NCBI GenBank assembly: GCA_040902005.1
Contig: JBBDYA010000006.1
Span: 1-45,043 of the forward strand
Reading direction: 5' to 3'
From: Gemmatimonadaceae bacterium
Lineage (GTDB): Bacteria > Gemmatimonadota > Gemmatimonadetes > Gemmatimonadales > Gemmatimonadaceae
Length of the DNA: 45,043 nucleotides
The position numbers and the translations under genes were made by a program. Numbering within the stretch: position 1 is the first letter of the stretch; the number at the start of each line of letters is the position of its first letter. Positions 4,748 to 29,865 of the stretch are shown here, in pieces. Under the pieces are notes generated by a model. It did no database searches and was not told the DNA's origin. It was given only the letters and a program-made list of their open reading frames with translations.

Positions 4748-5287
4748 CTAGCCTCCGAACGATATGTCCGCCCCGGACGCAGGTGGTTCGTTCGCTGCCG
4801 CCTCGCGCGACGCCGCCCGGAACAGTGGCGCCACCGCCATCGGCGTCCGACGCTCCGCCGGTGCCCGCTTCACGTCGAAGTGCTTTGACGTCACGAAGTA
4901 CCGCGCGCCGACACGGCGGCACGCCACGAACTGGATCGCGTCCTCAAAGTCCACGTCACTGAAGTACAGGGCCGACAGGTAGTCCATGTTGTCCAGCGGC
5001 GCCACGCGCACGAGTCGCAGGAGGTCTTGCACCACCCCGAACGAAACGGCGGAGCGCGGACGAGAGTCCGACAGGTGGTAGAGCAGCGGTACCGTGAGCG
5101 GTGAAATCCAGGCCGGAACACGCATGGTGCCGCTCTCGACGTCCGCCGCGATCGCCTCGAACAGCTCCTCTGCGCCGTTGCCGCGCCTGCCCCCGATTCC
5201 CACGAGATCCATGATCACGTCCGCGCCCACCACGATGGGCGTCGGCGTGATTTGATAGTCGGCGCGAGGTGGACGCCTAATACGCAT
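4748..5287 (-). CDS. PIN-domain (VapC-like) toxin, divergent
   Basis: VVGADVIMDL, WISPLT and DFEDAIQFVAC..ARYFVT motifs. The start overlaps the antitoxin stop. Confidence 0.75.
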   Translation of the reverse strand: MRIRRPPRADYQITPTPIVVGADVIMDLVGIGGRRGNGAEELFEAIAADVESGTMRVPAWISPLTVPLLYHLSDSRPRSAVSFGVVQDLLRLVRVAPLDNMDYLSALYFSDVDFEDAIQFVACRRVGARYFVTSKHFDVKRAPAERRTPMAVAPLFRAASREAAANEPPASGADISFGG

Positions 5288-5552
5288 TGCCGCGATCCTC
5301 GAGTCGCCTGCGATGCCGGCTGACGTAGGCCGCAAACGCGTCTGATCCGTCGATCATTCCATCGTGCCGCGCCCTGTGCAGGCGCGCCACGAGCGGCGAC
5401 CTGAGCCTCATCACGGCTCCCTCCCTGGGCAGGGTACCGAGAAAGTCCTCGACCAGTTGGGACAGGTTCGTCCCGGCCATCTCGCAGAACCGTTCGGCGC
5501 GCTCCACCACCGCAGGCGCGAGGAAGAGGTTCTTCGCCCGCCGGCGTGCCAT
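5277..5552 (-). CDS. Putative antitoxin (RHH-like, DUF6364-like)
   Basis: 91 aa with KNLFL...AERFC...NLSQLVEDFL, directly upstream of and overlapping the PIN gene. Confidence 0.72.
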   Translation of the reverse strand: MARRRAKNLFLAPAVVERAERFCEMAGTNLSQLVEDFLGTLPREGAVMRLRSPLVARLHRARHDGMIDGSDAFAAYVSRHRRRLEDRGNAY

Positions 5553-8202: not shown

Positions 8203-8988
8203 GTGCACCCGGTCAGCGATCGGCTTCTCACGCGCCTGGCGAGGCTCGCGTGCGCGTTTGCGCTCCTCCTCCTCGCTCCGCTCAGCCTGCTCTCGGCGCA
8301 AGCGCCGGCGACGCCCCCGGCAGCCGCGGCTCCGGCTCCGAAGCTCAAAGTCCAGTTGGAGCTTGGATTCCAGATGAGCATGACGAACAGTTACGCGATC
8401 GGGAACGTGGACCAGTGGTTCGAAGAGATCACCACCCCGGGCGAGGGACTCACTGACACGGCGCCCGGCTTCAATCAGATCGATGTGCGGCTCCTCCTCG
8501 GCACCGACGGCTCCCCATTTCGTATCGGAGTCGGGTTCGGCGGCTACCTCGGTTCGCCGCGCGCCCTCAATGGCCAATCGGCCGCTGCGCAAACACAATT
8601 CCACGCCACGCCGAGCATCGTCTTCCTTGCCCTCCCCATCCAGTTGCGCCTTGGCCCAGTCTCGTCCTCGACCTACGTGGCCCTGGAACCGGCGATGGGC
8701 ATCGGGTTCGTGAAGGAGGGCTCCCTCTCGATTTCGACCTCGACACGCCACACGCTCGCGCCGATGCCGACGTTCGGCTACCAGCTCGGCGCCGGTGTCG
8801 AGCACTATCTCGGGCGCGTGGCGATCCTCGGTCGAGTGGGATATCGCCTCCAGAAAATCGGGGCGGGGTACACCGACTCTTCAGGTGACGTGCTGCAGTA
8901 CCTTGTGCCGAGTACCGATGAGCTCGTGATGATGGACCTGTCGGGGGCCTATGCCACCCTTGGTGTGGTCCTGGTCCTCGCCCGCTGA
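8203..8988 (+). CDS. Secreted, probable outer-membrane beta-barrel hypothetical protein
   Basis: Signal peptide ending LSAQA; alternating amphipathic beta strands. Confidence 0.65.
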   Translation: MHPVSDRLLTRLARLACAFALLLLAPLSLLSAQAPATPPAAAAPAPKLKVQLELGFQMSMTNSYAIGNVDQWFEEITTPGEGLTDTAPGFNQIDVRLLLGTDGSPFRIGVGFGGYLGSPRALNGQSAAAQTQFHATPSIVFLALPIQLRLGPVSSSTYVALEPAMGIGFVKEGSLSISTSTRHTLAPMPTFGYQLGAGVEHYLGRVAILGRVGYRLQKIGAGYTDSSGDVLQYLVPSTDELVMMDLSGAYATLGVVLVLAR

Positions 8989-9275: not shown

Positions 9276-10760
9276 CTAGCCGCCTGGGCGGCCGGGTATG
9301 GCGGTGCCGTGGCAGGCGATGCACACCGATGGGTTCTTCTCCAGCATCCGCGCGGCGTTGAATCCCGGCCCGTGCGGATTGAACCGGAACCCACCGCCCA
9401 CCGCGGAATGACACGCGGTGCAACTACGCTCGGCGTGGCACGATGCGCACGTCTCGAGGCTCTGCCGGGCGGCCTGTCCGTGGCCCAGACTGAAGCCGCG
9501 GAAGGCATCGTGGTATCCCTTCTGGCCGATACGCGACGCGGCCACGAGTCCCGCCTGCTGGTGGCAGCTCTGGCAGAACTGCGCCGGATTGTGACAATCG
9601 CTGCAGCTGGACTGGCGGGCATACGCCGCGCTGGGATGGCGCGTGAGGAATCCCTGAGGATGGTAGAGGCTCTGCCGGCCGCCGTCCGGCCGATGGCACT
9701 CGAGGCACGTCGAGCGCGCGTGACACGTCTCGCACGAGGCTGGCCGGGCATTGGCCTCCGGCCCGTGTCCCTCGCGGAACGCCAGCGTGTGGCTCGCCGG
9801 CGCGGCGCGCGTCGTTTGCGCGCCCGCGGCGCGCCCGGAGGACCCTGCCGGCAGGGCCGCCACGGCTGGTGGCACGTCCCGAACGTGGCAGGTCAGGCAG
9901 CTCTCCCGCGCGTGGCAGGTGGCGCAGGTGGCCGTCGCCCGCTGTGCGTCCCTGCCATGCTGCCGCAGGAAGCCCGCGGACGCATGACTCGCCGGCGCCG
10001 ATTGCGTTGACGCGTAGGTGGGTGACCGGTCGTCGAGCGCCAGCGCGCGAATCACGGGCGACTCGGGGGCATTCACGTGGCACCCGAGACACAGGTTGCG
10101 CGCGTGGCACGTGGCGCAGCTGGCGGCGATGGCGACGGCCCCCGGGTGCGCGCCGGGAACCCGCGCGGCACGGCCGTGGCCACCTTCCAGAAAATTGCGC
10201 TCACGATGCGACGCCGGCACGGGAAAGGTCCGGATGTCTTCGCGAGTCAGCGCCGGCGCGTCGGTGAGCCGCACGTGACAGGTCGCGCAGGCTTCAGCCG
10301 GAACGTCCACGTGCGACCCCGTGAGGCCGTGGCAGTCGAGGCACTGCCCTACCACGGCGTGGCGCACCGTCATCCGCGGCGCGTCCGGCTCGTTGTGACA
10401 CGAGGAACAGGTTCGGGCCCGCACGCTATCGGCCGGATCGGCGGCGGCCGACGCGCGACGGTGCCCGTCATGCGTGAACCTCAGGTTCCCCCCGCGCGGG
10501 CCGGTCCGCGGTTCCCACTCGACGCGCGGTTTCACCTCGCCGTCATGGCACGACGCGCACTGCGCCGGCTGCGGCCAGAGCGGCTGCCCGGGCTCGACGA
10601 TGCCCGCGTGACAGGTGGCACAGAGTGGAAACAGCTTCTCGTGCTTGTCGTGAGGGAATCCGGCGCGTTCCTGGCGCACAGCAGCCGGCGCGGCGAACAC
10701 GGTGCCGGCGACCAGCGCCACGACGATCACGGCCGGGAGCACACGCCACCGATGATTCAT
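9276..10760 (-). CDS. Multiheme cytochrome c, 16 CxxCH motifs, signal peptide
   Basis: Start MNHRWR at 10760 overlaps the porin stop. 16 CxxCH motifs counted, many in paired CxxCH-x4/5-CxxCH modules. Confidence 0.92.
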   Translation of the reverse strand: MNHRWRVLPAVIVVALVAGTVFAAPAAVRQERAGFPHDKHEKLFPLCATCHAGIVEPGQPLWPQPAQCASCHDGEVKPRVEWEPRTGPRGGNLRFTHDGHRRASAAADPADSVRARTCSSCHNEPDAPRMTVRHAVVGQCLDCHGLTGSHVDVPAEACATCHVRLTDAPALTREDIRTFPVPASHRERNFLEGGHGRAARVPGAHPGAVAIAASCATCHARNLCLGCHVNAPESPVIRALALDDRSPTYASTQSAPASHASAGFLRQHGRDAQRATATCATCHARESCLTCHVRDVPPAVAALPAGSSGRAAGAQTTRAAPASHTLAFREGHGPEANARPASCETCHARSTCLECHRPDGGRQSLYHPQGFLTRHPSAAYARQSSCSDCHNPAQFCQSCHQQAGLVAASRIGQKGYHDAFRGFSLGHGQAARQSLETCASCHAERSCTACHSAVGGGFRFNPHGPGFNAARMLEKNPSVCIACHGTAIPGRPGG

Positions 10761-12238
10761 CGTCCCATCCTGCGCGCGGGCGGCAAGGGGGTTCGATCGG
10801 CACCGGATCCGAACGCCAGGCTCACGCCGGCGCGGAGTCGCACCTGCGACAGCGACGATGCACTCGCGTCGGGCCGCTCGCGTTGATCGTCGACGAACGC
10901 CACGTCGCTCCACACGCGCCGCTGCACCGTGGGCTTCCACTCCACGCGACCGCCGATCCAGTGACTCGTCGCGTCGTAGTACCGCAGCTCGAGGGGCCGC
11001 GCCATCGTTCCGCCGTACACATCCACCGACAATCGCTCGCCGAGCGTGCAGGTCACGGCACCATCGGCGAACCGACCCGCGGCGCCCGGCCCGTGTTCCA
11101 GCCCATAGTTGCCGTCCAGTACCCAGCGCGACCCCACCGTGGCGCGAGCACCGACGCTGGCGCGCCACCCGCGATCCTCCAGCAGGGGCACGAGCCCGGT
11201 GGACACGTTCGCTGACTCGTAGCGATACCGTTCGCCGCGCCCGTGCAACGAGAGCCGGCCGGACGGCCGCACTTCCACGGACGCGTTCAGCGCGTTGTAG
11301 GGCACGGGACTGAACGCGCCCCACAGCGTCCACAGACTGAAATACGGACGATACCGCCGCGCGCCGCCCGACACGGCGAAGCGCGGTTGCAGGTATGTGA
11401 GCGTGAGGTCCGCCGACCCGAGATGACCCTCCGCGATGTTGTAATCCAGTCCGCCGGCCGCCCGCACGGAGGCGGTGCGCGCCACGAGCGAGATCGCGGT
11501 GCGTTCGGAGACGAAGTAGTCGTCCTGTGGATCCACCTCCCGGCGGTACTCCGCGCGCACGTCCACATCGCGGCGCCGCCACGACGCCTCCGCGCCCGCC
11601 ACGAGTTGCCGGTCGCGCGGCCGCCACTCGTCGAGCGGGTTGAGCGCGGGGCTCGTCACCGGCAGCGCGGCGGCCTGCCCGAGCCCCCAGCCTCCGTACG
11701 CCGCGAAGTCGAGCGAGGCCTTGTCCCAGCGAGCGCCGAGCCACCCGCCGTCGAACCCCAGCCGCTCCAGTCGCGATGACAGCAGCTGACGACCGGCGCG
11801 CCCCGTGAATGCCGGACGTTGGTACTCGAAGTATCCCTCGATGAGCTGACCCGCCGGTTCCACGCCGGGCCACACCCGATCGCGCCCGAGGTCCGCCAGC
11901 AGCCGGCCGGTTGCGCGCAGCGTCAGCCCGGGAACGCCCAGCCCCCACATGACCATGCTCGCGGAGGTCGTCACCGGCACGCCGCGCAGTTCGGGGCCCG
12001 GCCGGAAGTAGTGGCAGTACTCCCCTGCCCCGCACCGCACCGCGTAGCCATCCGGGGTCTGCAATCCGCCGCTGGTGGAGGGCACCACCGCTCCGACCGC
12101 GATGCTGTCGGCGACGAGGCCGCGAAACGAGACCGCTTGGGTGCCCGCATCCAGACGAACGCGATAATTCTGCGCCGAGACCGGAGCGGTCCCCGTTACC
12201 ACGAGGGACACGATCGTCAGTCGGCGCCACTGCGTCAT
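10757..12238 (-). CDS. Outer-membrane beta-barrel porin-like protein of a porin-cytochrome module
   Basis: Signal peptide (VSAQ); long run of amphipathic, aromatic-rich beta strands; translationally coupled between two multiheme genes. Confidence 0.78.
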   Translation of the reverse strand: MTQWRRLTIVSLVVTGTAPVSAQNYRVRLDAGTQAVSFRGLVADSIAVGAVVPSTSGGLQTPDGYAVRCGAGEYCHYFRPGPELRGVPVTTSASMVMWGLGVPGLTLRATGRLLADLGRDRVWPGVEPAGQLIEGYFEYQRPAFTGRAGRQLLSSRLERLGFDGGWLGARWDKASLDFAAYGGWGLGQAAALPVTSPALNPLDEWRPRDRQLVAGAEASWRRRDVDVRAEYRREVDPQDDYFVSERTAISLVARTASVRAAGGLDYNIAEGHLGSADLTLTYLQPRFAVSGGARRYRPYFSLWTLWGAFSPVPYNALNASVEVRPSGRLSLHGRGERYRYESANVSTGLVPLLEDRGWRASVGARATVGSRWVLDGNYGLEHGPGAAGRFADGAVTCTLGERLSVDVYGGTMARPLELRYYDATSHWIGGRVEWKPTVQRRVWSDVAFVDDQRERPDASASSLSQVRLRAGVSLAFGSGADRTPLPPARRMGR

Positions 12239-14301
12239 CGCGGGATCGGCATGGTGAGTTTCGCCCGGTACGCGTCGGGGTCAGTGAGGAAGTGGCACAC
12301 GCTGCATTCCTGGCGGTCGTAATGGTTCGTCGCCTTCGCCGTGTGACAGGTGCCGCAGAAGGCCCGCACCGGCGTGAGCCCCGCGATCGTGGCCGGCGTG
12401 TGGCACGCGTCGCAGCGCTGGTGCGCCACCTCCAGGGTGGTATGCGCGACGCGCGGATCGGCGATCGCATGACACGCGGAACACGTTCGGCCCACGGCGT
12501 GATGCTCGCTGTGGCAATCCTGGCAGAGGGTGCGCGGCGGCACCAGGGTGACCGGAGTGGTGTGGCATTCCATGCACGACCGGGTCTCGTGGCGCGCATG
12601 CAGAAAGTCTATCGGTCGTGTCGCCGGTGATCGGCCGGGGACCGTCACGGTGATGACCGCCGGTTGTGGTGGTACGTACTCGGCGGTACGGTGACACGTG
12701 GCGCACCGGGCCGGTGTCGGCGCCTGGTGATGGCAGATTGCGCAACCGCGCGGCGGCTCGAACGTCAGTCGGCCATGGCCGTCCCCCGTCTGGTGACAGA
12801 CGAGACACGCGAGCCGCGTGTGCCTCGCGTGGGGGAACGTGTCGGCCAGCGCGGCCGGTGCGGCCGGCAGGTATGGCCCGGCGCGAGCGCTCTCTTCCCC
12901 CCCCCCTACCCCCCGGGCGTGCCCGAACCGAGCGTCATCATCGGCGTCGCTAGGGGGGGGGGACGGACCGCCGCCCCGGGCCGATCCCGAGATGACCGAG
13001 TGACGCGGCGGCGGGGACAGGGCATGCGGCGCTGGTGCGGGGGGGGGGGCTGCCGACGGCGGGGTGGGGCGGCGCAGTGCGCTGCTGGTGTCGAAGGGAA
13101 GAGGCGGGCGCAGCCGGCTCCGGGATCGCACGGTGAGGTGGCACGCCTCGCAGCTGCTGGCGTCCACCTTGGCGGCGTGCGGCGCGTGGCAGAGAACGCA
13201 CTGCCGGCCAACGTTGCGATGGCTGGCGCCCCTATGGAACGCCTCGTCCTGCCAGTTGGAATGGCACCCCGATGTGGCGCAGGTCGCGGCCGCCTCTGCG
13301 GTGCTCTTCTGCACGTGCGGGTTGTGGCACATGCCGCACGTGCCGCCGTGCGGATCCCTGTCCTCGTTGAAGTCCGCCAGCACCTGGCGCATCTCGTGGC
13401 ACCCGAGACACTCCGCCCTGCCGGGCACCAGGGTTCCGCGCGCGGAATCGCGCGTGGCGAGTGCGGGAACGTCCGCGGTGAAGCCGTGACAACTCGTACA
13501 GTGGCGAACGGTCTGGCCGGCCATCTTGCCGAGCACGATCCCCGTCTCTTCCGGCTCATGGCAACCGCTCTGGCCGCACGTTGCGGCGACTGGCTGGAAT
13601 CGATGCACCTCGACGCCGTGGCATGACACGCATTGCAGCTCGGCGAGGGCGCTGGAGTCCGACTCCAGATGCACGCGGTGGCCCGCCGTCGCCGCAATGC
13701 GCTGCCAGGTGGCCGTGTCGCCTGTGACATGGCAGCTGGCACACACGCGATCCGGCACCTTCGCGTGTTCGCCGATCTCCTGCGGCCGCTCCGCCACCCA
13801 GAGGTAGAGTTGCCGCATGCTGGCCGTCAGCGGCTGCTGATGGCACGCGTGGCACGACAGCTCGGCGTGCTTGTTCTCGAGATTGGCGAACTTCTGGAAC
13901 GCGGGGTTCATGACGTGACACCCGATGCAGAAGTCGTTCGAGTGCTGCGTATAGTTCCAGGTGGCAGCGCCCATGATGCCGGTACCGATGAGCAGCGCGA
14001 CACCGGCGGCCGCGAGCGCGAATCGAACGGCAGGGGTGCGCGACACCAGCCATGCGCGGATCTCAACGCGGCGCCGGTACAGGAACCGGAGGACGATGAG
14101 AGCAACGGCGGCGCCGACGACGACCCCGCCCATCTGCACCCACGACGGGACCGTGTTCAACAGGAAACGGACGACCTCCGCGACTCCGCCGGGGAGTGGC
14201 GACTCGACGACCACCGTGTCGAGGGTCGCGCCGTGCGTTTGTTGAAGCGCCGCTGCCGGTTGCATGACCCCGGCGGCGACGCCGGGTTGCGTGCCGATCA
14301 C
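12235..14301 (-). CDS. Membrane-anchored multiheme cytochrome c with NapC/NirT-like N-terminus (18 CxxCH + 2 CX4CH)
   Basis: Two TM helices, then YTQHSNDFCIGCHVM...CHACH. A Pro-rich linker separates 11-heme and 9-heme blocks. Confidence 0.9.
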   Translation of the reverse strand: MIGTQPGVAAGVMQPAAALQQTHGATLDTVVVESPLPGGVAEVVRFLLNTVPSWVQMGGVVVGAAVALIVLRFLYRRRVEIRAWLVSRTPAVRFALAAAGVALLIGTGIMGAATWNYTQHSNDFCIGCHVMNPAFQKFANLENKHAELSCHACHQQPLTASMRQLYLWVAERPQEIGEHAKVPDRVCASCHVTGDTATWQRIAATAGHRVHLESDSSALAELQCVSCHGVEVHRFQPVAATCGQSGCHEPEETGIVLGKMAGQTVRHCTSCHGFTADVPALATRDSARGTLVPGRAECLGCHEMRQVLADFNEDRDPHGGTCGMCHNPHVQKSTAEAAATCATSGCHSNWQDEAFHRGASHRNVGRQCVLCHAPHAAKVDASSCEACHLTVRSRSRLRPPLPFDTSSALRRPTPPSAAPPPAPAPHALSPPPRHSVISGSARGGGPSPPPSDADDDARFGHARGVGGGEESARAGPYLPAAPAALADTFPHARHTRLACLVCHQTGDGHGRLTFEPPRGCAICHHQAPTPARCATCHRTAEYVPPQPAVITVTVPGRSPATRPIDFLHARHETRSCMECHTTPVTLVPPRTLCQDCHSEHHAVGRTCSACHAIADPRVAHTTLEVAHQRCDACHTPATIAGLTPVRAFCGTCHTAKATNHYDRQECSVCHFLTDPDAYRAKLTMPIPR

Positions 14302-14320
14302 AACTTATAACGTAATCGAG

Positions 14321-15874
14321 TCACCTACCTGACGGCGTGCGGACCACATGCATTGCGCTGTAGAACGCTTCCTTGTTCAGCCCGTCCAGCCGGGCCTGCT
14401 CCGCGGCGGACGCAGGCAGCCCATAATAACTCCTGATGTAGTCGATCGTGGCGATCATCAGCGCCCGGCACAAGAACGGGTTGTGGACCCCCTTGGAGTT
14501 GTCGGCGGTGGACTGCCCGTACTCGCCACAGAGGCGCGCATTGAACTCGGCGCCCTCGGCTGGCGTGATCGTATTGTCGCTGTTGCTCCATTCCGTCGGA
14601 GTGCTCGCCCGCACCGTGGGCAGCAGTCCGGCGTCCGTGGGCGATGCCTGCATCGAGCCGTTGGCGTTCGAGTCCAACCAGAGCTGGTCCGTGAAGGACT
14701 TCATCAGCGCGCGGGAGTCGTTGAAGATGGTGGCGGCCACACTGGCGTTGGCGTGACAGCCCGCGGTGGTGCAAGTCTGCCACGACCGCGCCGTGGCCGT
14801 GTAGGCGCACGTCTTGTCGGCTATCGGCTTGCCATCGGCGTCCAGGCATGGCACCGGGCGCATGAGGTGACCCGTTGCCTGGAACGAGAATGCCCCAGTG
14901 AGCTGATCGGTCACGGTGAATTTGGCGACGTGACATCCCGCGCAGAGCTTGGGGTTCGCCGTGGTGGCATGCGAGCCGAAGATGCGAGCGGTGTCGTAGG
15001 TGAACCCCGGCGGCCGCCAGCCGGCGAAGCCCAGCAGCATCGCCCCCTGCGGCGCATGGGGTGAGCTGGTAGACACCGTCGGCTCTCCCACGCGCAGATG
15101 GCATCGGATGCAGAGGTTCTCTTCCGGATCCGCGGCCGTCACCGCGAAGCGCAGTTGCCCGGGGTTGTTCTTCGCGTGCGGGTCGTGGCACACCGCGCAC
15201 GTCGTCGCCTGATACGCGGTCGGGTCGTCCCGCTCGATGTAGTTGTCATCGACGCCCCACTTTGCAAGCGCCTTGCGGCCGTCGTGGCAACCGGCGCAGC
15301 TCGCGTTTGCTGCCCGCGACGCGCTGACGTTCGCGTGTCTCGAGGCTGCCCATTCCTCGGCGTACGGCTGATGCGTTCCCGAGTGGCAGTCGCCGCAGTT
15401 GCCGGTGCCCGTCATGCTGAGCTTCGCGAGTGGCCGCACGAGCGAACCCTGACCGACACCCTCTACGTGCTCAAGGCCGGGTCCATGGCAGCTCTCACAC
15501 TGCACGTCGTAGTAGGTCGCTTCCTTGATCGCATCGTGTCCAGCAGTCGTCCCGGAGGCCACGTTCCCCTTGCCCGTGACCGTGTGGCACGCGTAACAGA
15601 AGTCCGCCGCCGCCGTGCTTGAGTTCAGCGTCGTGTAGGCACTCGCGTGCGCCGTGCCTTGCCAGCTTCCCTGAAAACCGGCGTGACAGTTTCCGCACGT
15701 CGTCTGCTTCGTGGCCGCGTCATAGTAGCCGAGGAATCCGGCGGCGGCGGCGTCCGGCTGATTGAACGGCGCCCGATCGCGGAACACAATCTTCTCATCC
15801 GTGCAGCCGTTCAGGAACGTCGCGACGACCAGTGTCGTCAATCCAGCCCGCGTGGTCCAGCGCGCATTGCGCAT
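14321..15874 (-). CDS. Multiheme cytochrome c lipoprotein (8 CxxCH + 1 CX4CH)
   Basis: GAGAGGGA RBS, lipobox FLNGC, heme motifs and C-terminal SKGVHNP. Confidence 0.9.
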   Translation of the reverse strand: MRNARWTTRAGLTTLVVATFLNGCTDEKIVFRDRAPFNQPDAAAAGFLGYYDAATKQTTCGNCHAGFQGSWQGTAHASAYTTLNSSTAAADFCYACHTVTGKGNVASGTTAGHDAIKEATYYDVQCESCHGPGLEHVEGVGQGSLVRPLAKLSMTGTGNCGDCHSGTHQPYAEEWAASRHANVSASRAANASCAGCHDGRKALAKWGVDDNYIERDDPTAYQATTCAVCHDPHAKNNPGQLRFAVTAADPEENLCIRCHLRVGEPTVSTSSPHAPQGAMLLGFAGWRPPGFTYDTARIFGSHATTANPKLCAGCHVAKFTVTDQLTGAFSFQATGHLMRPVPCLDADGKPIADKTCAYTATARSWQTCTTAGCHANASVAATIFNDSRALMKSFTDQLWLDSNANGSMQASPTDAGLLPTVRASTPTEWSNSDNTITPAEGAEFNARLCGEYGQSTADNSKGVHNPFLCRALMIATIDYIRSYYGLPASAAEQARLDGLNKEAFYSAMHVVRTPSGR

Positions 15875-16212
15875 AGCGTCCCTCTCGAGAGGCGTGCGAA
15901 ACGGACATCTGTGCGACCAGGCCGGGATTCGGCCTGGCTCAATAAAACGGCCCAATGAACGATCGCTCTGTCAGGGACTTCCCGGAAGCCTCTGGCCGAG
16001 TTGCACCCACATGGCCGACAAGAAATAATCCTAAGGCGCAACAGTGTGTATGCATGTAGGGCAATACCTGACAAGGTGCCGGGAGAACCGCCCTGCTTCT
16101 TCCGAGCTTTCCACCATGTCCGGCCAGGCACCGCCGACGTAACGATCAGCCGTCCGGCCTGTGCGGCAGAGGTCGTGCCACGAACCGCGCCGCGTCACCC
16201 CTCTGGAATGCG
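15875..16212. promoter_or_regulatory. Divergent promoter region between the cytochrome operon and the NapA-like operon
   Basis: Intergenic and more AT-rich; contains inverted TGTCAGG (15969) and CCTGACA (16067). Confidence 0.5.
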
Positions 16213-18549
16213 ATGAGCACTGTCGATCGGAGGTCGTTCCTGAAGGAGATGGCGGCCGCCACGGCGGGCACAGCCGCGGTTCCCGGCATGCTCGCCGGGT
16301 CCGCGACAACGTCGAAGCACTCGAGCTCGTCGGCTCCCGTCTGGGAGAAGGCGCCCTGCCGGCTCTGCGGCGTCGGTTGCGGACTCCGGGTGGCCATCGA
16401 GGGCGGTCGCGCCGTCGCCGTGCAAGGCGATCCCACGTCGGCCGTGAGCGGTGGGCTCGCGTGCGCGAAAGGTTACTACTCGATCCAGGCACTGTACGGA
16501 CGCGATCGCATCACCCGGGCGTTGATCCGTCGCGATGGTCGGCTGGTCCAGGCGCCGATCGCCGAGGCGCTCGACCTGGTCGCCAGCCGGCTTCGGGAGA
16601 CGGTTCGACAGCATGGCAAGGACAGCGTTGCTGTCTACGGCTCAGCGCAGTGGACCATTCCGGACGCCTACGTCGCCTCGAAGCTGTTCAAGGGTGGGCT
16701 CGGCACGAACAACGTGGAGACCAGCACGCGGCTGTATGGGGCAAGCGCGATGGCGGGGCTCGAGACCAGCTTCGGCCTCGACGGCGCGATCGGCTGCTAT
16801 GAGGACGCGGACCACGCCGACGCATTTGTCATCTGGGACGCCAACCTCGCCGAAACCGACCCGGTGTTCTTCTCGCGCATGCTGGACCGTCGGCGGAACG
16901 ACCCTGCCGTGCGTATCATCGATCTGACGACGCGCACCACGCGCACCAGCTACGCCTCGGATCACGTCCTGCTGCACGCGCCGCACTCGGCGATGGCGAT
17001 CGCGAACGCCATCTGCCGCGAGATCATTGCCCGCGGATGGGAGCGCCGCGATTTCGTGGACCGACACGTCGCCTTCACGCGGGGCAGTACGGACATCGGT
17101 TACGGCCGCCCCGATGACGCGCTGCTCGTTGACGAGGCCACCACCGTTTCGTTCAGCGAGTACAAGGCGTTCCTCGACTCGTCCACGCCGGCGCGCGCGC
17201 AATCGCTGTCTGGCGTACCGGCGGAGCGCATCCAGTGGCTGGCATCGGTGTACGGCGACCCGACGCGCCGGGTGATGTCCGTCTGGGGACCGACCGCGAA
17301 CCAGCACGCGCGCGGCACGTGGTTGAACAACCTGCTCTACAACATCCACCTGCTGGTCGGGAAGATCGCGGCGCCCGGGAACAGCGCGTTCTGCATCGTT
17401 GGGCAACCCAACGGTGGCAGCAGCGTGCACGACGCGGGGACGTTGACGCACACCTTGCCGCGCGGCGTCGTGACCAGCGAGGAGGACCGCCGCCGGGCCG
17501 CAACGATCTGGGACGTGCCGGTGGAGCGGATCGACGCGCGCCCCGCGCACCCCGCCCTGGGCATGCTTCGCGCGCTCGAGCGGGGCGACATCCGCTTCCT
17601 GTGGATTCAGGCGACCAATCCGATGGTGAGCCTGCCCGACATGGGACGGTACCGTCGCGCGCTGGCAAGCGACGATCGCTTCGTGGTCGTCTCTGAGGCC
17701 TATCCCACGCCGACGACGGACCTGGCAGACGTGGTGCTTCCCGCCGCGCTCTGGATCGAGCGAGAGGGCATCTACGCCAACGCCGAGCGGCGCACGCAAC
17801 ATTTCGAGCAGCTCGTCGCGCCACCGGGCGACGCGATGAGCGACGCCTGGCAGATGATCGAGGTCGCGCGCCGGCTGGGACTGTCGCGGCTCTTTCCCTG
17901 GGATCGTCGCGGGCACGTCGCGCACATCTGGGAGGAGTATCGGCGATTTCACATCGATCCGCGCAGCGCGCTCCCGCCGATCGACGAGCTGCGCGCGAAA
18001 CCCGGCGTGATGTGGCCCTTCGTGCATGGTCGCGAAACCAGGTGGCGGTACAACACCGCGCACGATCCGGCGGCAAGCCGCGCGCGCGGCGCCTTCGACT
18101 TCTATGGGTATCCGGACGGCCGCGCGCGGATCTGGCTGCGACCCCACGAGCCGCCGGCGGAATCACCGGACCGCCAGTATCCGTTCTGGCTCAGCACCGG
18201 TCCCGTGCTCGAGCACTGGGGCGGCGGTTCCCTCACGCAGCGGATCCCCACCCTGCATCGCGCGGTGCCCAGTGCGTACGTCGAGATCCACCGCGACGAC
18301 GCCCGGCGCCTGGGCATTCGTCAGGGCGAGGTCGTGCGCCTCGTGAGCCGCCGCGGCGCGCTCGAGATCGACGCGCGCATCGACTACCGCTCGCAGCCGC
18401 AGCGCGGCCAGCTCTTCGTGCCGTCGTTCGACGAATCGTTGCCAGTCCGGCGCCTGTTGTCCGACGCGTCGTGCCCCCTGTCCGGACAACCCGACCTGGG
18501 ACCGTGCGCCGTTCGCGTAGAGCGGATCGCGCAGAAGGGTAGCGCATGA
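16213..18549 (+). CDS. Tat-exported NapA-like molybdopterin oxidoreductase, atypical active site
   Basis: DRRSFLK Tat motif; CRLCGVGCG...CAKG Fe-S motif; overall NapA-like layout. The expected RxCMASA appears as RLYGASA. Confidence 0.88.
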   Translation: MSTVDRRSFLKEMAAATAGTAAVPGMLAGSATTSKHSSSSAPVWEKAPCRLCGVGCGLRVAIEGGRAVAVQGDPTSAVSGGLACAKGYYSIQALYGRDRITRALIRRDGRLVQAPIAEALDLVASRLRETVRQHGKDSVAVYGSAQWTIPDAYVASKLFKGGLGTNNVETSTRLYGASAMAGLETSFGLDGAIGCYEDADHADAFVIWDANLAETDPVFFSRMLDRRRNDPAVRIIDLTTRTTRTSYASDHVLLHAPHSAMAIANAICREIIARGWERRDFVDRHVAFTRGSTDIGYGRPDDALLVDEATTVSFSEYKAFLDSSTPARAQSLSGVPAERIQWLASVYGDPTRRVMSVWGPTANQHARGTWLNNLLYNIHLLVGKIAAPGNSAFCIVGQPNGGSSVHDAGTLTHTLPRGVVTSEEDRRRAATIWDVPVERIDARPAHPALGMLRALERGDIRFLWIQATNPMVSLPDMGRYRRALASDDRFVVVSEAYPTPTTDLADVVLPAALWIEREGIYANAERRTQHFEQLVAPPGDAMSDAWQMIEVARRLGLSRLFPWDRRGHVAHIWEEYRRFHIDPRSALPPIDELRAKPGVMWPFVHGRETRWRYNTAHDPAASRARGAFDFYGYPDGRARIWLRPHEPPAESPDRQYPFWLSTGPVLEHWGGGSLTQRIPTLHRAVPSAYVEIHRDDARRLGIRQGEVVRLVSRRGALEIDARIDYRSQPQRGQLFVPSFDESLPVRRLLSDASCPLSGQPDLGPCAVRVERIAQKGSA

Positions 18550-19358
18550 CGTCTCGCGGCCGGGGATCCGGCGTTTCGCCGATGCGCGTTTTCCTGCTCG
18601 TGTCGGCGGCCGTGGCGATCGTCGCCGTAGCGTTCGCGTCCCAGCGGGTGGCAGCGGAACGTGGGGCCGGAACGCGCGCCGCGCCCGTGGCGTTACTGGC
18701 GTCTCCCGACGTGCCGATCGCCGCCGAGGCGCAGGTGTTTCGCACCGCCGCCGGGATGCTGGCGATCGAACCGGCCCTTGGCCCGCGGCGAGCAGCGCAT
18801 CCGAGATCACTGGCCACGTGGCGATCGCTGCGCGCGTACCCGGGCGCGCCGCCGCGCATTCCGCACGGGCTCACGCCTACGGAGTTCCGCACGGGCGGTT
18901 GCACGACGTGCCACGAGCGCGGGGGGTACTCGCAGCGGTTCGGGGCCTATGTGCCGATCACGCCGCACCCCGAGATGGGCGCGTGTTTGCAGTGCCATGT
19001 GGGCGACGCCACGCTCATGGCGATCGGGCTTCCGAGCACCGATCCGAGTGCACGGTGCCGGCAGTGTCACGCGGAGGGCGCCACGCGCTGGACGGAGTCG
19101 TCGGCGTGGACCACGCTGGAGTGGCCCCAGACGGTGACGACCACGCCCGGCCAGAGCCCGCCACCGATTCCGCATACCCTGCACCTGCGCGGCAACTGCC
19201 TGGCCTGTCACGCGCCGCCAACCGCCGTCGCGGAGATCCGGACCTCGCACCCGGAGCGAGCCAACTGCCGGCAGTGCCACGTGACGGCTGCGCCGAACGG
19301 CGCGGTGTTCGTCCGTCCGGCGCCGCCCACGGCTGCCCAGAGCGGGGGGGCGCCGTGA
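18546..19358 (+). CDS. NapB-like pentaheme cytochrome c
   Basis: YPGAPPRIPH and a second PPPIPH motif; 5 CxxCH; ATGA overlap with the upstream stop. Confidence 0.85.
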   Translation: MTSRGRGSGVSPMRVFLLVSAAVAIVAVAFASQRVAAERGAGTRAAPVALLASPDVPIAAEAQVFRTAAGMLAIEPALGPRRAAHPRSLATWRSLRAYPGAPPRIPHGLTPTEFRTGGCTTCHERGGYSQRFGAYVPITPHPEMGACLQCHVGDATLMAIGLPSTDPSARCRQCHAEGATRWTESSAWTTLEWPQTVTTTPGQSPPPIPHTLHLRGNCLACHAPPTAVAEIRTSHPERANCRQCHVTAAPNGAVFVRPAPPTAAQSGGAP

Positions 19359-20074
19359 TGCGCCGCCGTGGGGCCGCGACGATGTGGCGTGTGGCGCTGC
19401 TCGCGACGGCCGTGGGCTGCGGCGATCTCCGCCGTGCGTCGGTCACCGATACCGCGCGCGCGATCGCGCCGGCGGCAGCGATGATGGATACGCTGGCCAA
19501 TGCGACGCGCGAACCTGGCGCGCTCGCGACCGTGCTGGCGGCGCCAGTGCAACACTGGAGCGGGCCCGGCGCGCGGCCATTCGAGGTCACGCTCCGAACG
19601 GCCGATCCCACCACCGCACTCTCGCGCCGGTTCGGGATGATCACGCTGCGAACGTCGCTGCGGACGCGCGCGCCCGACCTCAACCAGTACCCGTGCACGT
19701 CGTGCCACCTGGGGAACACGATCCTGGCGGACCGGCGCGCGGCCGGCGCACATGAGAACATCCGGCCGGTGCACCCGGCGCAAACCGGCGCCGTCTGCTC
19801 GACCTGTCATGCGCCAGGCAACGTCGACTTGCTGGCGCTCAGGAGCGGTGAGCGCGAGACGCTGGATCACACCTACCGGCTGTGCGCGCAATGCCACTTC
19901 TCGCAAGCGGAGTCGTGGGCGGGTGGCGCCCACGGCAAGCGGCTCGACGGCTGGCAGGGTCGTCGCGTGCTGATGGGCTGCGCCGACTGCCATGATCCGC
20001 ACAAGCCCGCGCTGGAACCGCGTATCCCATTCCGCGCGCCGCAGCTCGAACGCGCTGGAGGCCGCTCGCCATGA
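19358..20074 (+). CDS. Tetraheme cytochrome c, probable lipoprotein
   Basis: AVGC lipobox-like motif; CTSCH, CSTCH, CAQCH, CADCH. Confidence 0.85.
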   Translation: MRRRGAATMWRVALLATAVGCGDLRRASVTDTARAIAPAAAMMDTLANATREPGALATVLAAPVQHWSGPGARPFEVTLRTADPTTALSRRFGMITLRTSLRTRAPDLNQYPCTSCHLGNTILADRRAAGAHENIRPVHPAQTGAVCSTCHAPGNVDLLALRSGERETLDHTYRLCAQCHFSQAESWAGGAHGKRLDGWQGRRVLMGCADCHDPHKPALEPRIPFRAPQLERAGGRSP

Positions 20075-21054
20075 CGATCGAACGCCCGGCTCCCCCCCCG
20101 GGGCCGAACGAGACCGACGACGGCTCGGTGATGCAGAAGCGCATGGACCGACGCCGGGCGCTGGGCGTGCTCTTCGGCGGGATGGCCGCCGGCGCGCAGG
20201 CCGTGAGCGCGTGCGCGCCGATCAGCGCCATGTCAGACGAGGAGCGGGAGGTCAAGCTGCTCGCGTGGCGGGAGTACATCAAGGGAAACTATCAGTTCAT
20301 GACGGAGGCCGAACGGGCGGAGACCATCGCGCGCCTCGAACGCCTTGCGCAGGTGAAGCGCGGCCTCGACGTGACGATCCAGTCCACGGGCGCCCAGCCG
20401 GGTGTCGTCTTCGGCTACGCCTTCAACATCTCGAAGTGCAAGGGGTTTCGCAGCTGCATCGAGGCGTGCATCAACGAGAACAACCTGGACCGGCGCGCCG
20501 CGACTCAGTACATCCGCATCTTCGAGATGGCGGATGGTGTGATCGACCTCGATCACGCCGATGCCACGTTCCAGCACGAGGTGCCTGCCGAGGGACACTT
20601 CTACATGGGCACGCAGTGCTTCCAGTGCGCGGATCCCCCGTGCGTGAAGGTCTGCCCCGTTGGCGCCACCTGGCAGGAGCCGGACGGCATCACCGTCATC
20701 GACTATGACTGGTGCATCGGCTGCCGCTACTGCATGGCGGCCTGCCCGTACTGGGCGCGCCGCTTCAACTGGAGCGAGCCGGAGGTGCCCGCCGCCCTGG
20801 TGAATCCGAATCAGCACTACCTGGGCAACCGCCAGCGCAAGATGGGCGCGGTCGAGAAATGCCACTTCTGCATTCATCGCACGCGCCAGGGCCGGCTGCC
20901 GGCGTGCGCGGAGGCATGCCCGACCGGCGCGCGGGTATTCGGCAACCTGCTGGATCCGAATTCGGAGATCCGGTGGGTGCTCGCCAACAAGCGCGTGTTC
21001 CGGTTGAAGGAAGATCTCAAGACGGAACCGCGGTTCTGGTACTACACGGACTGA
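20071..21054 (+). CDS. NrfC/DsrO/PsrB-like four-cluster Fe-S protein, Tat-like signal
   Basis: MDRRRALG; CKGFRSCIEAC, CFQCADPPCVKVCP, CIGCRYCMAACP and CHFC..ACAEACP. Confidence 0.92.
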   Translation: MTIERPAPPPGPNETDDGSVMQKRMDRRRALGVLFGGMAAGAQAVSACAPISAMSDEEREVKLLAWREYIKGNYQFMTEAERAETIARLERLAQVKRGLDVTIQSTGAQPGVVFGYAFNISKCKGFRSCIEACINENNLDRRAATQYIRIFEMADGVIDLDHADATFQHEVPAEGHFYMGTQCFQCADPPCVKVCPVGATWQEPDGITVIDYDWCIGCRYCMAACPYWARRFNWSEPEVPAALVNPNQHYLGNRQRKMGAVEKCHFCIHRTRQGRLPACAEACPTGARVFGNLLDPNSEIRWVLANKRVFRLKEDLKTEPRFWYYTD

Positions 21055-21061
21055 GGCCCTC

Positions 21062-22272
21062 GTGCACCTTCGACCCTTCGCGCGACACGCGCTGCACACG
21101 GCGACCTCCGGGGGACGGCGCTATCACCTGTGGATGGGCACCCTGACGCTCATCATGCTCGCGGGGGCGTACGCGTACGGCATTCAGCTGCGCTACGGTC
21201 TGGGCGTCACCGGGATGAACGACCACGTGAGCTGGGGACTCTACATCTCCAACTTCACGTTCCTGGTCGGGCTGGCGGCGGCCGCCATGATGCTCGTGCT
21301 TCCCGCCTACATCCTCCACGACGTGGATTTCAGTCGCGCCGTGCTCATGGCGGAGGCTGTCGCGGTGGCCGCGCTGGTCATGTGCCTCACCTTCGTGGTG
21401 GTGGACATCGGCAACCCACTGGGCGGCTGGCATCTCATGCCAGGCATCGGCTACCTGAACTGGCCGCGGTCGCTCCTGGCGTGGGACGTCCTGGTGCTCA
21501 ACGGCTACCTGGCGCTCAACCTCGCCATCCCATTCTACATCCTCTACACCCGGTACAGCGGGCGGACACCCGACAAGAAAAAGTACCTCCCCTGGATGTA
21601 CATCGCCGTCATGTGGGCGGTGAGCATTCACCTGGTGACGGCATTTCTGCTCGCGGGACTGCCCGCGCGGCCGTTCTGGAACACGGCGCTGCTGGGCCCC
21701 CGGTTCCTCGCCTCGGCATTCACCGCGGGTCCGGCGTTCGTGATTCTTCTGTTGTGGTTCATCCGGCGCGAAACGAACTACGAGATCGCCGACGGCGCGT
21801 TCACCAAGCTCGCGGTGGTCACGACGGTGGCGGCGCAGATCAACATCGTGATGCTCGGCTCGGAGCTGTTCTACAAGTTCTACTCGCCGACGCACCACGG
21901 CATCAACGCGAAGTACCTCTTCTTCGGCCTCGATGGCCACACCGCGCTGGTGCCGTGGATCTGGTCGGCGATTGGCCTGAACGTGCTCGCGACGACCGCC
22001 CTGATGATCCACCCCCTGCGCCGCAATCCGCAGTGGCTGATGCCCGCCTGCGCGGTGCTGTTCTTGAGCATCTGGGTCGAGAAGGGCCTGGGGCTGGTGG
22101 TGCCGGGGTTCATCCCGTCACCGCTCGGGGAGATCGTCGAGTACACGCCGAGCCTGGTCGAGCTGGGCGTCACGGCAGGCATCTGGGCGCTCGGCATGTT
22201 CGTGCTCACGGTGCTCGTGCGAGTGGCCCTGCCCATCGAACTGGGCGAGGCCCGCAGTCCCTACATCGATGA
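21062..22272 (+). CDS. NrfD/DsrP/PsrC-like membrane subunit; true stop uncertain (frame stays open to 24199)
   Basis: GLGVTGMNDHVSWGLYISNFTFLVG, VDIGNP, WPRSLLAWD, GPRFLASAF and YTPSLVE motifs; multiple TM helices. Homology-like sequence ends near 22270. Confidence 0.85.
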
Positions 22273-22400
22273 CGCACGGGTCACGACGATCGTGCGTCCG
22301 CGCAGCAGACGGTCCAAGCCGAAGGACACGCGCCCCGTGCGAACAGGGGGACCACGGCCGCGGGCGGCCGCCAGCGCATTCCCTCAGAGAGGTGATCGAC

Positions 22401-23357
22401 ATGACGCGACACAATCCGAACGACACCCGCTACTCGGTCGCCGCGCTCGCCGCGGGGCTGGTGGGCGGCGCCGGGCTGGCCGGCGCGCTGTTCCTGGTGG
22501 GCGCTCCGCTGCCGCTCGTGGCGGTCGCGGGCGTCGCGCTGTGGATGTTCCTCGCCGCAGCCATCAAGTACACGGACCAGTGGGAAAAGGCCGTGCTGAT
22601 GCGGCTCGGCCGCTACCGCGGACTGCGCGGCCCCGGCTATTTCACCGTCATCCCGATCCTCGATCGGATCGCGTACACCATCGATCGGCGCATCCGGACC
22701 ACCGCGTTCGGCGCGGAATCATGTCTCACGCGAGACACCGTGCCCGTCAACGTCGACGCCATCGCGTTCTGGATCGTCCGCGACGCGGAGCGCGCCGCCC
22801 TCGAGGTGCAGGATTACGACGAGGCGGTGATTCTGTCGGCGCAGACCGCGTTGCGCGACGCCATCGGCAAGCACGACCTCGCGGAGTTGATCCAGTCGCG
22901 CGTCGAGCTCGGGCACGGACTCAAGGCGGCGCTCGAGGTCAAGATGCAGAATTGGGGGATCGAGGTGCAGTCGGTCGAGATCCGCGATGTCATCATCCCG
23001 GCCGCGCTCGAGGATGCCATGTCGCGTCAGGCGCAGGCCGAGCGCGAGCGGCAGGCCCGCATCATCCTCGGCACCGCGGAGACCGAGATCGCGCACAAGT
23101 TCGTCGAAGCGGCGGACGCGTACCGCGACCATCCCGTCGCGCTGAACCTGCGCGCCATGAACATGTTGTACGAAAGCATCGTCAAGCGCGGCTCGCTGAT
23201 GGTCGTGCCGTCGGGGCTGGCCGATTCGCTGAACGTGCCCTCGCTGCTTGGTGTCGCGGGCGCGAGCGGACTCGTGCCGAAGGAGGGCCTCGATGGCACC
23301 GTTGCCCCAGCCGGGGGGGGGGGGGGGCCAGGGTCGAAGCCCGCGCCGCTGGCGTAG
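22401..23357 (+). CDS. SPFH/band 7 (slipin) family protein
   Basis: RBS GAGAGGTG; QWEKAVLMRLGR, LTRDTVPVNVDA and QAQAERERQARII. Confidence 0.92.
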   Translation: MTRHNPNDTRYSVAALAAGLVGGAGLAGALFLVGAPLPLVAVAGVALWMFLAAAIKYTDQWEKAVLMRLGRYRGLRGPGYFTVIPILDRIAYTIDRRIRTTAFGAESCLTRDTVPVNVDAIAFWIVRDAERAALEVQDYDEAVILSAQTALRDAIGKHDLAELIQSRVELGHGLKAALEVKMQNWGIEVQSVEIRDVIIPAALEDAMSRQAQAERERQARIILGTAETEIAHKFVEAADAYRDHPVALNLRAMNMLYESIVKRGSLMVVPSGLADSLNVPSLLGVAGASGLVPKEGLDGTVAPAGGGGGPGSKPAPLA

Positions 23358-23383
23358 GCGACTGGAGTCGACTGGCGACGTGG

Positions 23384-24109
23384 TCAGCGTGGCCGCGCGA
23401 GCTCCACGGCCGCGCGGATATCGGCGTCGTGGTCGGCGTACTCGGGGAGGGCGCGCGCCCGCTCCGTCGGTTCCGCGGCGACCAGTCGCCGGCGGAGGGC
23501 GGCCGCCGCCGGGGCATCCCCGCGCGCGTCGGCCACGCGCGCGGCGAGCGAGAGTCCCAGCAAGTGGTCGCGGTGGCGCGCAAGAATGGTGTCGGCCTGC
23601 GCAGCCGCGCGCGCTGCGTCACCCATGACGAGCGCCACGAGTCCCATGTCGTAGCGCCGGTGGGCGTCCAGCGGCGTGAGGACCTCGAGCGCGCCCAGTG
23701 CCATCGACCCGAAGAACGCGGCGCTGTCCGCCTTCCCTTCGCTGGAGAGCCGCATGACACGGTTGAACAGCCGATCGGCCTGTTCCTCCGGCGACATGGA
23801 CGAAATGTCCGGCGCCTGCATGGGCCTCGCGCCAAGCGGCATCGCGCCCGCGGGGCCTTGCCGCGTCTCTGCCTCGCGCGAATCGAACCCGGCCACGGTG
23901 AGCGCGACGAGCGCGAATACCGCGATCGCCGGCAGTCCCCACCGCAACGCGGGCGCGAGCGCCGACGCAGATGGCGTGGCGGCGCGCGGCCCCCCCCCCC
24001 CGTGCATGGGCAGCCCGCACTCATGACAGAAGCGCGCGTCCGGATTGAACCGCGTACCGCATTCATTGCAGAATTTCGGCGTGGGCGGCGTGGAGTTCGC
24101 CTGCGTCAT
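23384..24109 (-). CDS. Zinc-ribbon, TM and helical (TPR-like) protein, last gene of the ccm operon
   Basis: FCNECG...FCHECG, one TM segment, Ala-rich helical C-terminus. The start overlaps the ccmH stop. Confidence 0.75.
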   Translation of the reverse strand: MTQANSTPPTPKFCNECGTRFNPDARFCHECGLPMHGGGGPRAATPSASALAPALRWGLPAIAVFALVALTVAGFDSREAETRQGPAGAMPLGARPMQAPDISSMSPEEQADRLFNRVMRLSSEGKADSAAFFGSMALGALEVLTPLDAHRRYDMGLVALVMGDAARAAAQADTILARHRDHLLGLSLAARVADARGDAPAAAALRRRLVAAEPTERARALPEYADHDADIRAAVELARPR

Positions 24110-24564
24110 TGTATTCCTGCCTCCGGCGTCGTCCATCGCCGTACGAGGTACGCGACGAAAGCCAGTCCGCCGACCATGAGCAGCACCGGAAGCACGTAGA
24201 GAGCGATGTTGAGCCCCGACATCGCGGGCTCGAGCAGAATCCATTCGCCGTACCTGGAGACGAAATACGCCTTGATCTCGTCCGGTGATTCGCCCGCGCG
24301 CAGCCGGTCGCGAACCACCGCGCGCATCTGCTGGGCGAGTTCGGCCGGTGAATCCTGGATGGACTCGCCCTGGCACACCGGGCAGCGGAGCGTGGACGCC
24401 ACGGCGGTCGTCCTCGCCTCGAGTTCGTCGTCCGCAGCAGTCGGCGTCGCCGCCGCGTGAGGTATCGCGCCCAGGGCCGCGGTATCCTGCGCGAACGCAG
24501 TCGTGGCGCCGCCGAGCGCCAGGGACGACGCCGTGACTATCAGCGCGAGTGATGCATGTCTCAT
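24106..24564 (-). CDS. ccmH: Cytochrome c biogenesis protein CcmH (CcmL-type)
   Basis: LRCPVCQGESIQDS and FVSRYGEWILLEP. Confidence 0.92.
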   Translation of the reverse strand: MRHASLALIVTASSLALGGATTAFAQDTAALGAIPHAAATPTAADDELEARTTAVASTLRCPVCQGESIQDSPAELAQQMRAVVRDRLRAGESPDEIKAYFVSRYGEWILLEPAMSGLNIALYVLPVLLMVGGLAFVAYLVRRWTTPEAGIQ

Positions 24565-25154
24565 GGGGCCGAGTCGCGCGGTGTCATGCCGGTGGGCATC
24601 GCCGCCGGCAACAGGGAATCGATCTTCGAGCGCAGCACCCTCGCGGAAATCGGTCCGAGGTGCTTGTACGCGATGCGCCCGGCCGGATCCACAATGAACG
24701 TCTCGGGCACGCCGTACAACCCGAAATCGATCGCCGTGAGCGAGCCCCGGTCCGTCACGGACGGATAACTCTGCCCGCCCATGCCCTCGATCCAGCGGAG
24801 GCCGAGATTCTGGCGGTCGTTGTAGAGCACGCCGATGAACTGCGTCGGCCGGTCGGCGTACTCCCGGGCCGTTTCGCTGAGCGCGACGTGCTCGTCGCGG
24901 CACGCCACGCACCACGACGCCCAGAAATTGACCACCACCACCTTGCCCGCGAGATCACGGAGGCGAATGCTGTCTCCGACGGATCGGCTCAGCGTTCCCT
25001 CGCCGGGCGCGAAGACCGCGAGCGAGAAATCCGGGGCGGGATTCCCCGGAAGGGGCGATGGGATCTCACCCGGATCGCGAGTGAAGCCAAAGGCGAACAG
25101 CGCGATCACCGGCACGGCGGTGAGCACGGCGACGGTGGCGCGCCCCCAATTCAT
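24561..25154 (-). CDS. ccmG: CcmG/DsbE thiol-disulfide oxidoreductase
   Basis: VNFWASWCVAC and YGVPETF; position in the operon. Confidence 0.9.
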   Translation of the reverse strand: MNWGRATVAVLTAVPVIALFAFGFTRDPGEIPSPLPGNPAPDFSLAVFAPGEGTLSRSVGDSIRLRDLAGKVVVVNFWASWCVACRDEHVALSETAREYADRPTQFIGVLYNDRQNLGLRWIEGMGGQSYPSVTDRGSLTAIDFGLYGVPETFIVDPAGRIAYKHLGPISARVLRSKIDSLLPAAMPTGMTPRDSAP

Positions 25155-27208: not shown

Positions 27209-27645
27209 GGCGTGGACTGCTTGATGAGCGTCTTGTACTTCTCGTGCGCTTCCTCGCCGGGCTTGGGCGCGCGGTACTCGTTCGAGTGCTTCACCATGAG
27301 CTCCGACGCCTGGAACACGCCGCCCCCACCGACGCGTCCTTCCACGATGACGCCCATCCCGTCGCGGAACATCTGCGGCGGAGCGCCCGTGGAGCGCACC
27401 GGCATCTCCTGCGCGCCATCGGTGACGGTGAAGCGCAGGTCGAGCGTCTCCGCGTCCCACACCACGGAGCCGGGCTTCACTTGCCCGCCCAGGCGCACGG
27501 GCACGCCTACACCGTCAGCGCCCTTCGCCAGCAACTCCTGTGGCGTGAGAAAGAACACCACGTTCTCCTGCAGGCCTCCGAACAGCAACCAGGCGAAAAC
27601 CGCGAGGATCGCGCCTGCACCCCAGAGCACCGGTGCGCGTTTCAT
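27205..27645 (-). CDS. ccmE: Heme chaperone CcmE
   Basis: VRLGGQVKPGS, PPQMFRDG and KHSNEY heme-binding motif. Confidence 0.95.
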   Translation of the reverse strand: MKRAPVLWGAGAILAVFAWLLFGGLQENVVFFLTPQELLAKGADGVGVPVRLGGQVKPGSVVWDAETLDLRFTVTDGAQEMPVRSTGAPPQMFRDGMGVIVEGRVGGGGVFQASELMVKHSNEYRAPKPGEEAHEKYKTLIKQSTP

Positions 27646-27798: not shown

Positions 27799-27800
27799 CG

Positions 27801-29831: not shown

Positions 29832-29865
29832 GGGAGGCAAGATAGCGCTTGCGCGCGGAACGGCC

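Follow-up and report, generated by a model that had tools for sequence, protein, structure and literature searches.

Several systems that move electrons across the cell envelope have been described. MtrB-family porins have 24-32 strands, and PCC3 and PCC4 share a five-helix HX13H membrane protein, which PCC4 combines with 4-, 5- and 10-heme cytochromes and no outer one (PMC5566968). The DFE_0461-0465 cluster of Desulfovibrio ferrophilus has an NHL-repeat gene between its cytochromes and no porin (PMC9769857), and OmhA (6QVM) and OcwA (6I5B; PMC9250108) are described as terminal reductases on the cell surface of iron-reducing Gram-positive bacteria (PMC12203936, PMC9250108). Here we describe a four-gene cassette, A to D, from a member of the Gemmatimonadota, a cosmopolitan and mostly uncultured phylum (PMC10581226). 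The cassette lies in a 45,043-nucleotide (nt) stretch, hereafter the window, of contig JBBDYA010000006.1 (Gemmatimonadaceae bacterium, assembly GCA_040902005.1). On balance, we consider it probable that A to D form an outward porin-cytochrome conduit.

Four genes with 45 heme motifs

Genes A to D lie together on the minus strand (Table 1), with A and B 19 nt apart and B/C and C/D overlapping at ATGA. A preliminary description of the locus had proposed a nine-heme lipoprotein, a 20-heme membrane-anchored protein, a porin-like barrel and a 16-heme secreted protein, the last three coupled by ATGA overlaps, with about 45 heme motifs in total. The overlaps, the motif counts, the lipobox Cys24 of A, the two helices of B and the hydrophobic N-terminal stretch of D all agree with it. 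Together, A, B and D hold 42 CxxCH and three CX4CH motifs, and since the CX4CH residues are invariant among 69 homologs of A and 53 of B, 45 is a fair count of hemes. Only 11 stop-to-stop frames in the 3.64-Mb host genome (93% complete, 2.5% contamination) contain at least three CxxCH motifs, and because ten of these sit in the island around the cassette or in its copy on contig C10, the clustering is not due to chance. This second copy covers the whole island (C10 1-16812 against window 9286-26078, ~75-79% nucleotide identity) and may represent either an ancient duplication or contamination, its tetranucleotide distance lying in the upper tail. Proteins A to D are 69-77% identical between the copies, with ratios of nonsynonymous to synonymous substitution rates (dN/dS) of 0.16-0.22, indicating purifying selection. 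The named homologs of the cassette belong to Gemmatimonadota.

The barrel-fold check that the preliminary description had set for gene C came out in favour of a predicted outer-membrane beta-barrel, as expected of a porin-cytochrome conduit. An AlphaFold model built on 133 sequences (predicted local distance difference test, pLDDT, 90.6; predicted template-modelling score, pTM, 0.82) has ~22 barrel strands, from 23 strand elements with 74-86 and 88-98 counted as one, and lacks a plug domain, since strand 1 begins right after the signal peptide. Residues ~37-86 form an extended first loop, which would face outward by usual barrel topology and carries a conserved Cys69-Cys75 pair (kept in 119/133 and 118/133 homologs). 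Foldseek returned 371 matches at E 0.001; among the matches listed, all are outer-membrane barrels and none is close, the best query TM-score being 0.47, with the MtrB chain of 6R2Q in fifth place (TM-score 0.37, root-mean-square deviation 15.9). C matches no family in Pfam or NCBIfam, and 25 distant homologs gave no MtrB-family row, one of them reaching the Porin_4 cut-off. Assignment to the MtrB-family porins was rejected on the lack of a family match for C and these 25 homologs, the ~22 strands and the low TM-score to 6R2Q_B.

Protein D has 16 conserved non-motif histidines for its 16 hemes, the pattern expected of a bis-histidine wire. Its N-terminal five-heme part is c7/HmcA/ActA-like and is followed by paired CxxCH repeats. 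Conservation peaks in residues 358-490 (0.64 against 0.49-0.54 elsewhere), and residues 358-460 fold poorly when predicted alone. Together with the position of the last heme of MtrA, which faces the surface (PMC12203936), these features lead us to infer that D enters barrel C via its C-terminal five hemes. Convergent with D lies a gene (window 8203-8988, + strand) with no other copy in the genome; it encodes a 261-amino-acid secreted protein with a C-terminal hydrophobic strand and no Pfam family, possibly a small outer-membrane barrel.

The sequence of protein A predicts a surface terminal cytochrome. Its lipobox Cys24 is kept in 99% of 69 homologs, which also share nine non-motif histidines and an invariant Cys343/Cys356 pair. 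The top of its ten PDB matches are OmhA (6QVM, E 1.5e-17) and OcwA (6I5B, E 9.6e-15), a distant kinship at the sequence level that holds over the multiheme core and, weakly, over the C-terminal GVHN segment. Weaker structure matches include MtrA, c554, HAO and MccA. Protein B consists of a two-helix membrane anchor with an NrfH-like N-terminus (E 1.2e-11 to NrfH 2J7A), a Pro-rich linker and a nine-heme c7/c3-like C-terminal domain. The NrfH/NapC trait of a membrane helix followed by CxxCHxM is present in 42/53 homologs, and B is likely a quinol oxidase.

Conservation of the cassette across Gemmatimonadota

The profile of barrel C matches 185/401 Gemmatimonadota genomes, including 26/93 of the host's family and 117/166 of a sister family, counts that include kin and are not independent. 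We examined 98 loci, namely a first set of 58 and 40 regions chosen among the 150 listed profile matches so as to favour long contigs and a wide spread; two exact duplicates were dropped and near-duplicates were kept in the synteny counts. D directly follows C in 91/91 assessable loci, 88 by script and three by inspection (one divergent, one with 18 hemes and one frameshifted), and five further loci stop at a contig edge. The barrel is thus invariably accompanied by an adjacent secreted multiheme cytochrome where this can be assessed. A is located upstream of the barrel in 79/81 assessable loci. B, among 83 assessable loci, is full in 61, short in 12 and absent in 10, the short form being a separate nine-heme gene without the NrfH part directly before C. 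L019 encodes the NrfH half separately, in a gene close by.

Other candidate quinone modules occur at loci without B. L093 carries a 22-heme NapC/NirT-type protein (PF03264 above cut-off) in a three-gene set, L112 and L121 have similar gene sets, and L103 has a 19-heme/cytochrome b561 fusion in B's place (E 3.6e-5, below cut-off), which we take to be CbcL-like. Since D is constant, A nearly so and B optional, the core of the system is the C/D pair, which A accompanies almost everywhere, and the quinone link is swappable. The complete wire from quinone pool to cell surface envisaged in the preliminary description remains plausible, because a barrel is predicted, the system is not MtrCAB and B begins NrfH-like; the four genes do not always occur as a set, as the short and absent forms of B attest.

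Further multiheme genes were observed around some cassettes. L103 (10850-19900, genome G059) combines barrel and D with the fusion and more multihemes replacing A and B, and L057 (3589-11702) has a 19-heme/cytochrome b561 fusion and further multihemes beside A and B. A tandem pair of A paralogs directly precedes the barrel at L089, L090 and L124, where B is missing. Several genomes carry a second gene pair, with 23 and 17-33 heme motifs, on the downstream side of the cassette at a distance of 3-8 kb (Table 1).

A NapA-derived operon beside the cassette

Divergent from A runs an accessory operon, followed by a cytochrome c maturation (ccm) cluster (Table 1); the preliminary description had recognised the cassette itself and overlooked both. 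The contig starts with a tyrosine integrase gene (149-1225, + strand), and a DUF6364 gene adjoins an unannotated open reading frame (5277-5552 and 4748-5335, both - strand), a possible mobile-element edge upstream of the island.

Table 1. Features of the window and of related loci. aa, amino acids; positions are those of the window unless a locus is named.
Feature	Position	Strand	Description and evidence
A	14321-15874	-	517 aa, 8 CxxCH + 1 CX4CH, lipobox-type Cys24; OmhA/OcwA-like 9-heme lipoprotein
B	12235-14301	-	GTG start, 688 aa, 18 CxxCH + 2 CX4CH, hydrophobic helices 57-75 and 94-112
C	10757-12238	-	493 aa, zero heme motifs; predicted outer-membrane beta-barrel
D	9276-10760	-	494 aa, 16 CxxCH, hydrophobic N-terminus 10-28, without lipobox; secreted cytochrome
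NapA-derived protein, Mo-ligand Cys absent	16213-18549	+	NapA PDB match E 7e-193; Tyr at Cys position
5-heme (weakly NapB-like) and 4-heme cytochromes	18546-20074	+	PF03892 21.3 bits, cut-off 25.1
DsrO/NrfC-like 4Fe-4S protein	20071-21054	+	family matches
NrfD-family membrane protein	21062-22351	+	PF03916 E 5e-31
SPFH/Band 7 protein, closes accessory operon in many loci	22269-23357	+	PF01145, synteny
ccm cluster: ccmH, redoxin, ccmF, ccmE, ccmC-like, ccmB, ccmA-like ABC ATPase	24106-29885	-	Pfam
Second multiheme pair	L053/L054 15600-19500; L094 14957-19901; L095 1757-5271; L115; L116

In the NapA-like protein of the window, a twin-arginine-type leader and the 4Fe-4S motif are retained, whereas the TGR and WH motifs and several cofactor-binding residues are gone; it scores 744 bits against a NapA model cut-off of 904. 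With these cofactor motifs gone and the Mo-ligand Cys replaced, it was rejected as an intact periplasmic nitrate reductase. Tyr, His, Ala, Phe, Thr or Ser stands in place of this Cys in 40 of 51 NapA-like rows, and one branch of a quick, midpoint-rooted tree of these rows parts the 40 Cys-less from the 11 intact ones (Shimodaira-Hasegawa-like approximate likelihood ratio test, 100). The loss likely happened once, since the two most distant NapAs group with the intact rows. The Cys-less proteins are under purifying selection (dN/dS 0.19 and 0.125 in two valid pairs) and would serve as a scaffold or Fe-S relay with the NrfD/Fe-S complex.

A NapA search of the 401 genomes matched 44, and the best 30 loci, which were inspected, comprised 19 Cys-less and 11 intact ones. 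Part of the phylum's napA calls are therefore without the catalytic cysteine and risk mis-annotation as nitrate reductase. In 25 of the first set of 58 loci, a NapA-like gene is found no more than 10 kb from the barrel, upstream and divergent or downstream and convergent. The module is an accessory one, because only 31/185 barrel genomes carry this NapA clade. The host carries moaA; its molybdopterin-family matches (genome 93% complete) include no intact NapA, both NapA-like copies being without the Mo ligand, and no NrfA was found in its genome. The nrfD stop codon is missing in the assembly (22346-22351), resulting in a read-through of 1045 aa. An in-frame TGA is found at 22349-22351 in contigs from two sequencing runs: X1, possibly from the source organism, ends 19 bases away, and X2, from a related strain, spans the site.

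QrcABCD and alternative complex III combine multihemes, a molybdoenzyme-like subunit without a Mo site, an Fe-S protein and NrfD, and the accessory operon shares this subunit combination. Unlike that of Qrc, its molybdoenzyme-like subunit is NapA-derived, ~60% identical to the intact NapA of the same operon type, and the window protein reaches 62.8 of the 440 bits that the QrcB model requires. Elsewhere, the host genome (G000) encodes a molybdopterin oxidoreductase match with one internal TGA (C30 9290-10558, - strand), possibly a selenocysteine formate dehydrogenase, and a series of 5-heme cytochrome, molybdopterin-like and Fe-S matches (C45 17888-21588) that is likely an alternative complex III.

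The proposed conduit, its rivals and its relatives

In the conduit that we favour, quinol would be oxidised by B or a substitute, and electrons would pass along B's hemes to D, which, held in barrel C, would carry them across the outer membrane to A. At the surface, A would hand the electrons on to iron oxides, humic matter or other cells. The quinone link would be modular, provided by B, by another NapC/NirT-type multiheme or by a multiheme-cytochrome b fusion, with the neighbouring NrfD/Fe-S complex as a further candidate. The adjacent ccm cluster and the purifying selection on A to D support this proposal.

Several observations weigh against it. The direction of electrons cannot be read from sequence, and a lipobox tells neither which membrane nor which face A occupies. 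No quinone module was seen in the B position at 6/10 B-less loci (L089, L090, L104, L109, L124 and L126). The alignment of B with NrfH stops at heme 2, and over 53 homologs B shows no clear counterpart of the NrfH/NapC quinol site, which we take to be a Lys and an Asp/Glu after heme 2; position 164, placed by eye, is Gln in 38, Glu in 6, Lys in 6 and Met in 3. The clade of A includes the periplasm-type enzymes c554 and MccA, and members of it reduce nitrite or NO in vitro (PMC9250108). Finally, the host has heme-copper oxidases.

The conduit might instead run inward, with Fe(II), reduced humics or partner cells feeding nitrate or oxygen respiration. Inward porin-cytochrome pairs are known, as in PioAB (PMC12203936), and at L102 (genome G039) the cassette runs into an intact napA-cytochrome-Fe-S-nrfD operon right after D on the same strand, an arrangement that also fits electron uptake. 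The barrel is also present in 31/32 genomes with this NapA clade. We nevertheless regard inward flow as unlikely, given that the host's NapA-like copies lack the Mo ligand, that few barrel genomes hold the NapA module and that OmhA and OcwA are described as reductases. No better placed is the proposal of no trans-membrane wire at all, with A a periplasm-facing enzyme of the HAO/c554/MccA clade acting on nitrite, NO or sulfite, B and D feeding it or storing electrons, and C a solute channel or scaffold. The matches of A to these enzymes and the lack of an NrfA in the host would suit such a role, and B by itself could bridge the periplasm to A. Against this, synteny links C to D and not to A, and the most conserved part of D folds poorly alone. 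Moreover, A has no obvious open catalytic heme, as its nine conserved free histidines match its nine hemes and it contains no CxxCK. Even less probable is a conduit whose barrel is filled by B's nine-heme C-terminal domain or part of A, with D as an outer extension: that domain survives in 12 loci as a stand-alone gene immediately ahead of C, but 10 loci lack it there, D is never missing, and D lacks a lipid anchor that would retain it on the outside.

No description of the cassette or of a Cys-less NapA was found in the literature, most subscription papers lying outside the search. FeGenie calls in marine Gemmatimonadota comprise three MtrABC operons, Cyc2 and DFE_461-465 homologs (PMC11316326), and other reports list a genome with 10-plus-heme cytochromes (PMC9671151), 'multiple iron reduction genes' (PMC13055281) and three CbcL/ImcH homologs (PMC6295460). 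Some such calls may be cassette genes under other labels, which tempers full novelty. Term searches found no Gemmatimonad mention in three supplements of PMC11475568, and neither 'extracellular electron' nor 'iron' in the main text of a 400-genome survey.

A conduit conserved in 185/401 genomes would bring an entire phylum into the redox cycling of iron and humic matter and would offer a porin-cytochrome design unrelated to Mtr, open to expression and structure solution. More tentatively, and short of what we would call probable, the findings can be read jointly. About half of Gemmatimonadota genomes would then carry an independently built trans-envelope wire, comprising a 22-strand barrel of a new family with a 16-heme cytochrome of unprecedented fold inside it, a surface reductase of the OcwA/OmhA type known from Gram-positive bacteria, and interchangeable quinone modules. 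Among these modules would be a nitrate reductase complex in which molybdenum was lost a single time from the catalytic subunit, which was retained as a scaffold for electron transfer. Gemmatimonadota would then rank as a major overlooked electroactive group, and nitrate reduction would not be the role of many napA genes annotated in them.

In coupling a barrel gene to secreted and lipoprotein multihemes with a NapC/NrfH-type quinone link, the cassette resembles Shewanella MtrCAB with CymA. As the preliminary description had held, it differs from MtrCAB, lacking any MtrA or MtrB family match and having a 16-/20-/9-heme set, in which 16- and 9-heme cytochromes stand against two decahemes, and a smaller barrel (493 aa against 649 for MtrB; TM-score as above). 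Its quinone module lies inside the operon, fused to 16 further hemes. An MtrA/DmsE-family decaheme, as found in MtrCAB, MtoAB and PioAB, was rejected (TIGR03508, 42 bits for A against a cut-off of 192; no match for B or D). As to kinship with the Geobacter OmbB-OmaB-OmcB and ExtABCD systems, profile comparison gave sub-cut-off matches only, to Geobacter models. A shares nine hemes with OcwA of Thermincola, which together with OmhA of Carboxydothermus is its best solved relative, but these two, which feature two penta-coordinate hemes, are located on the cell wall of Gram-positive bacteria and have no porin, whereas A is a lipoprotein beside a barrel. Like PCC3 and PCC4 (He et al. 2017, PMC5566968), the cassette clusters the genes of a porin, of large multihemes and of an inner-membrane link; PCC3 porins, however, have up to 42 strands (PMC5566968), and membership was rejected since B has two helices only and none of A to D is a five-helix HX13H gene. 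The peat EET1-4 clusters are likewise divergent porin-multiheme sets of uncultured phyla, some OcwA-like, but by their description they belong to Acidobacteriota and Verrucomicrobiota and have 8-13 hemes, and the main text of that preprint does not mention Gemmatimonadota (bioRxiv 10.64898/2026.05.27.727921). The predicted barrel sets the cassette apart from the DFE_0461-0465 type by its described gene layout (PMC9769857). The cassette thus belongs to none of the Mtr, PCC3/4 and DFE systems: the type of conduit is known, and this design differs.

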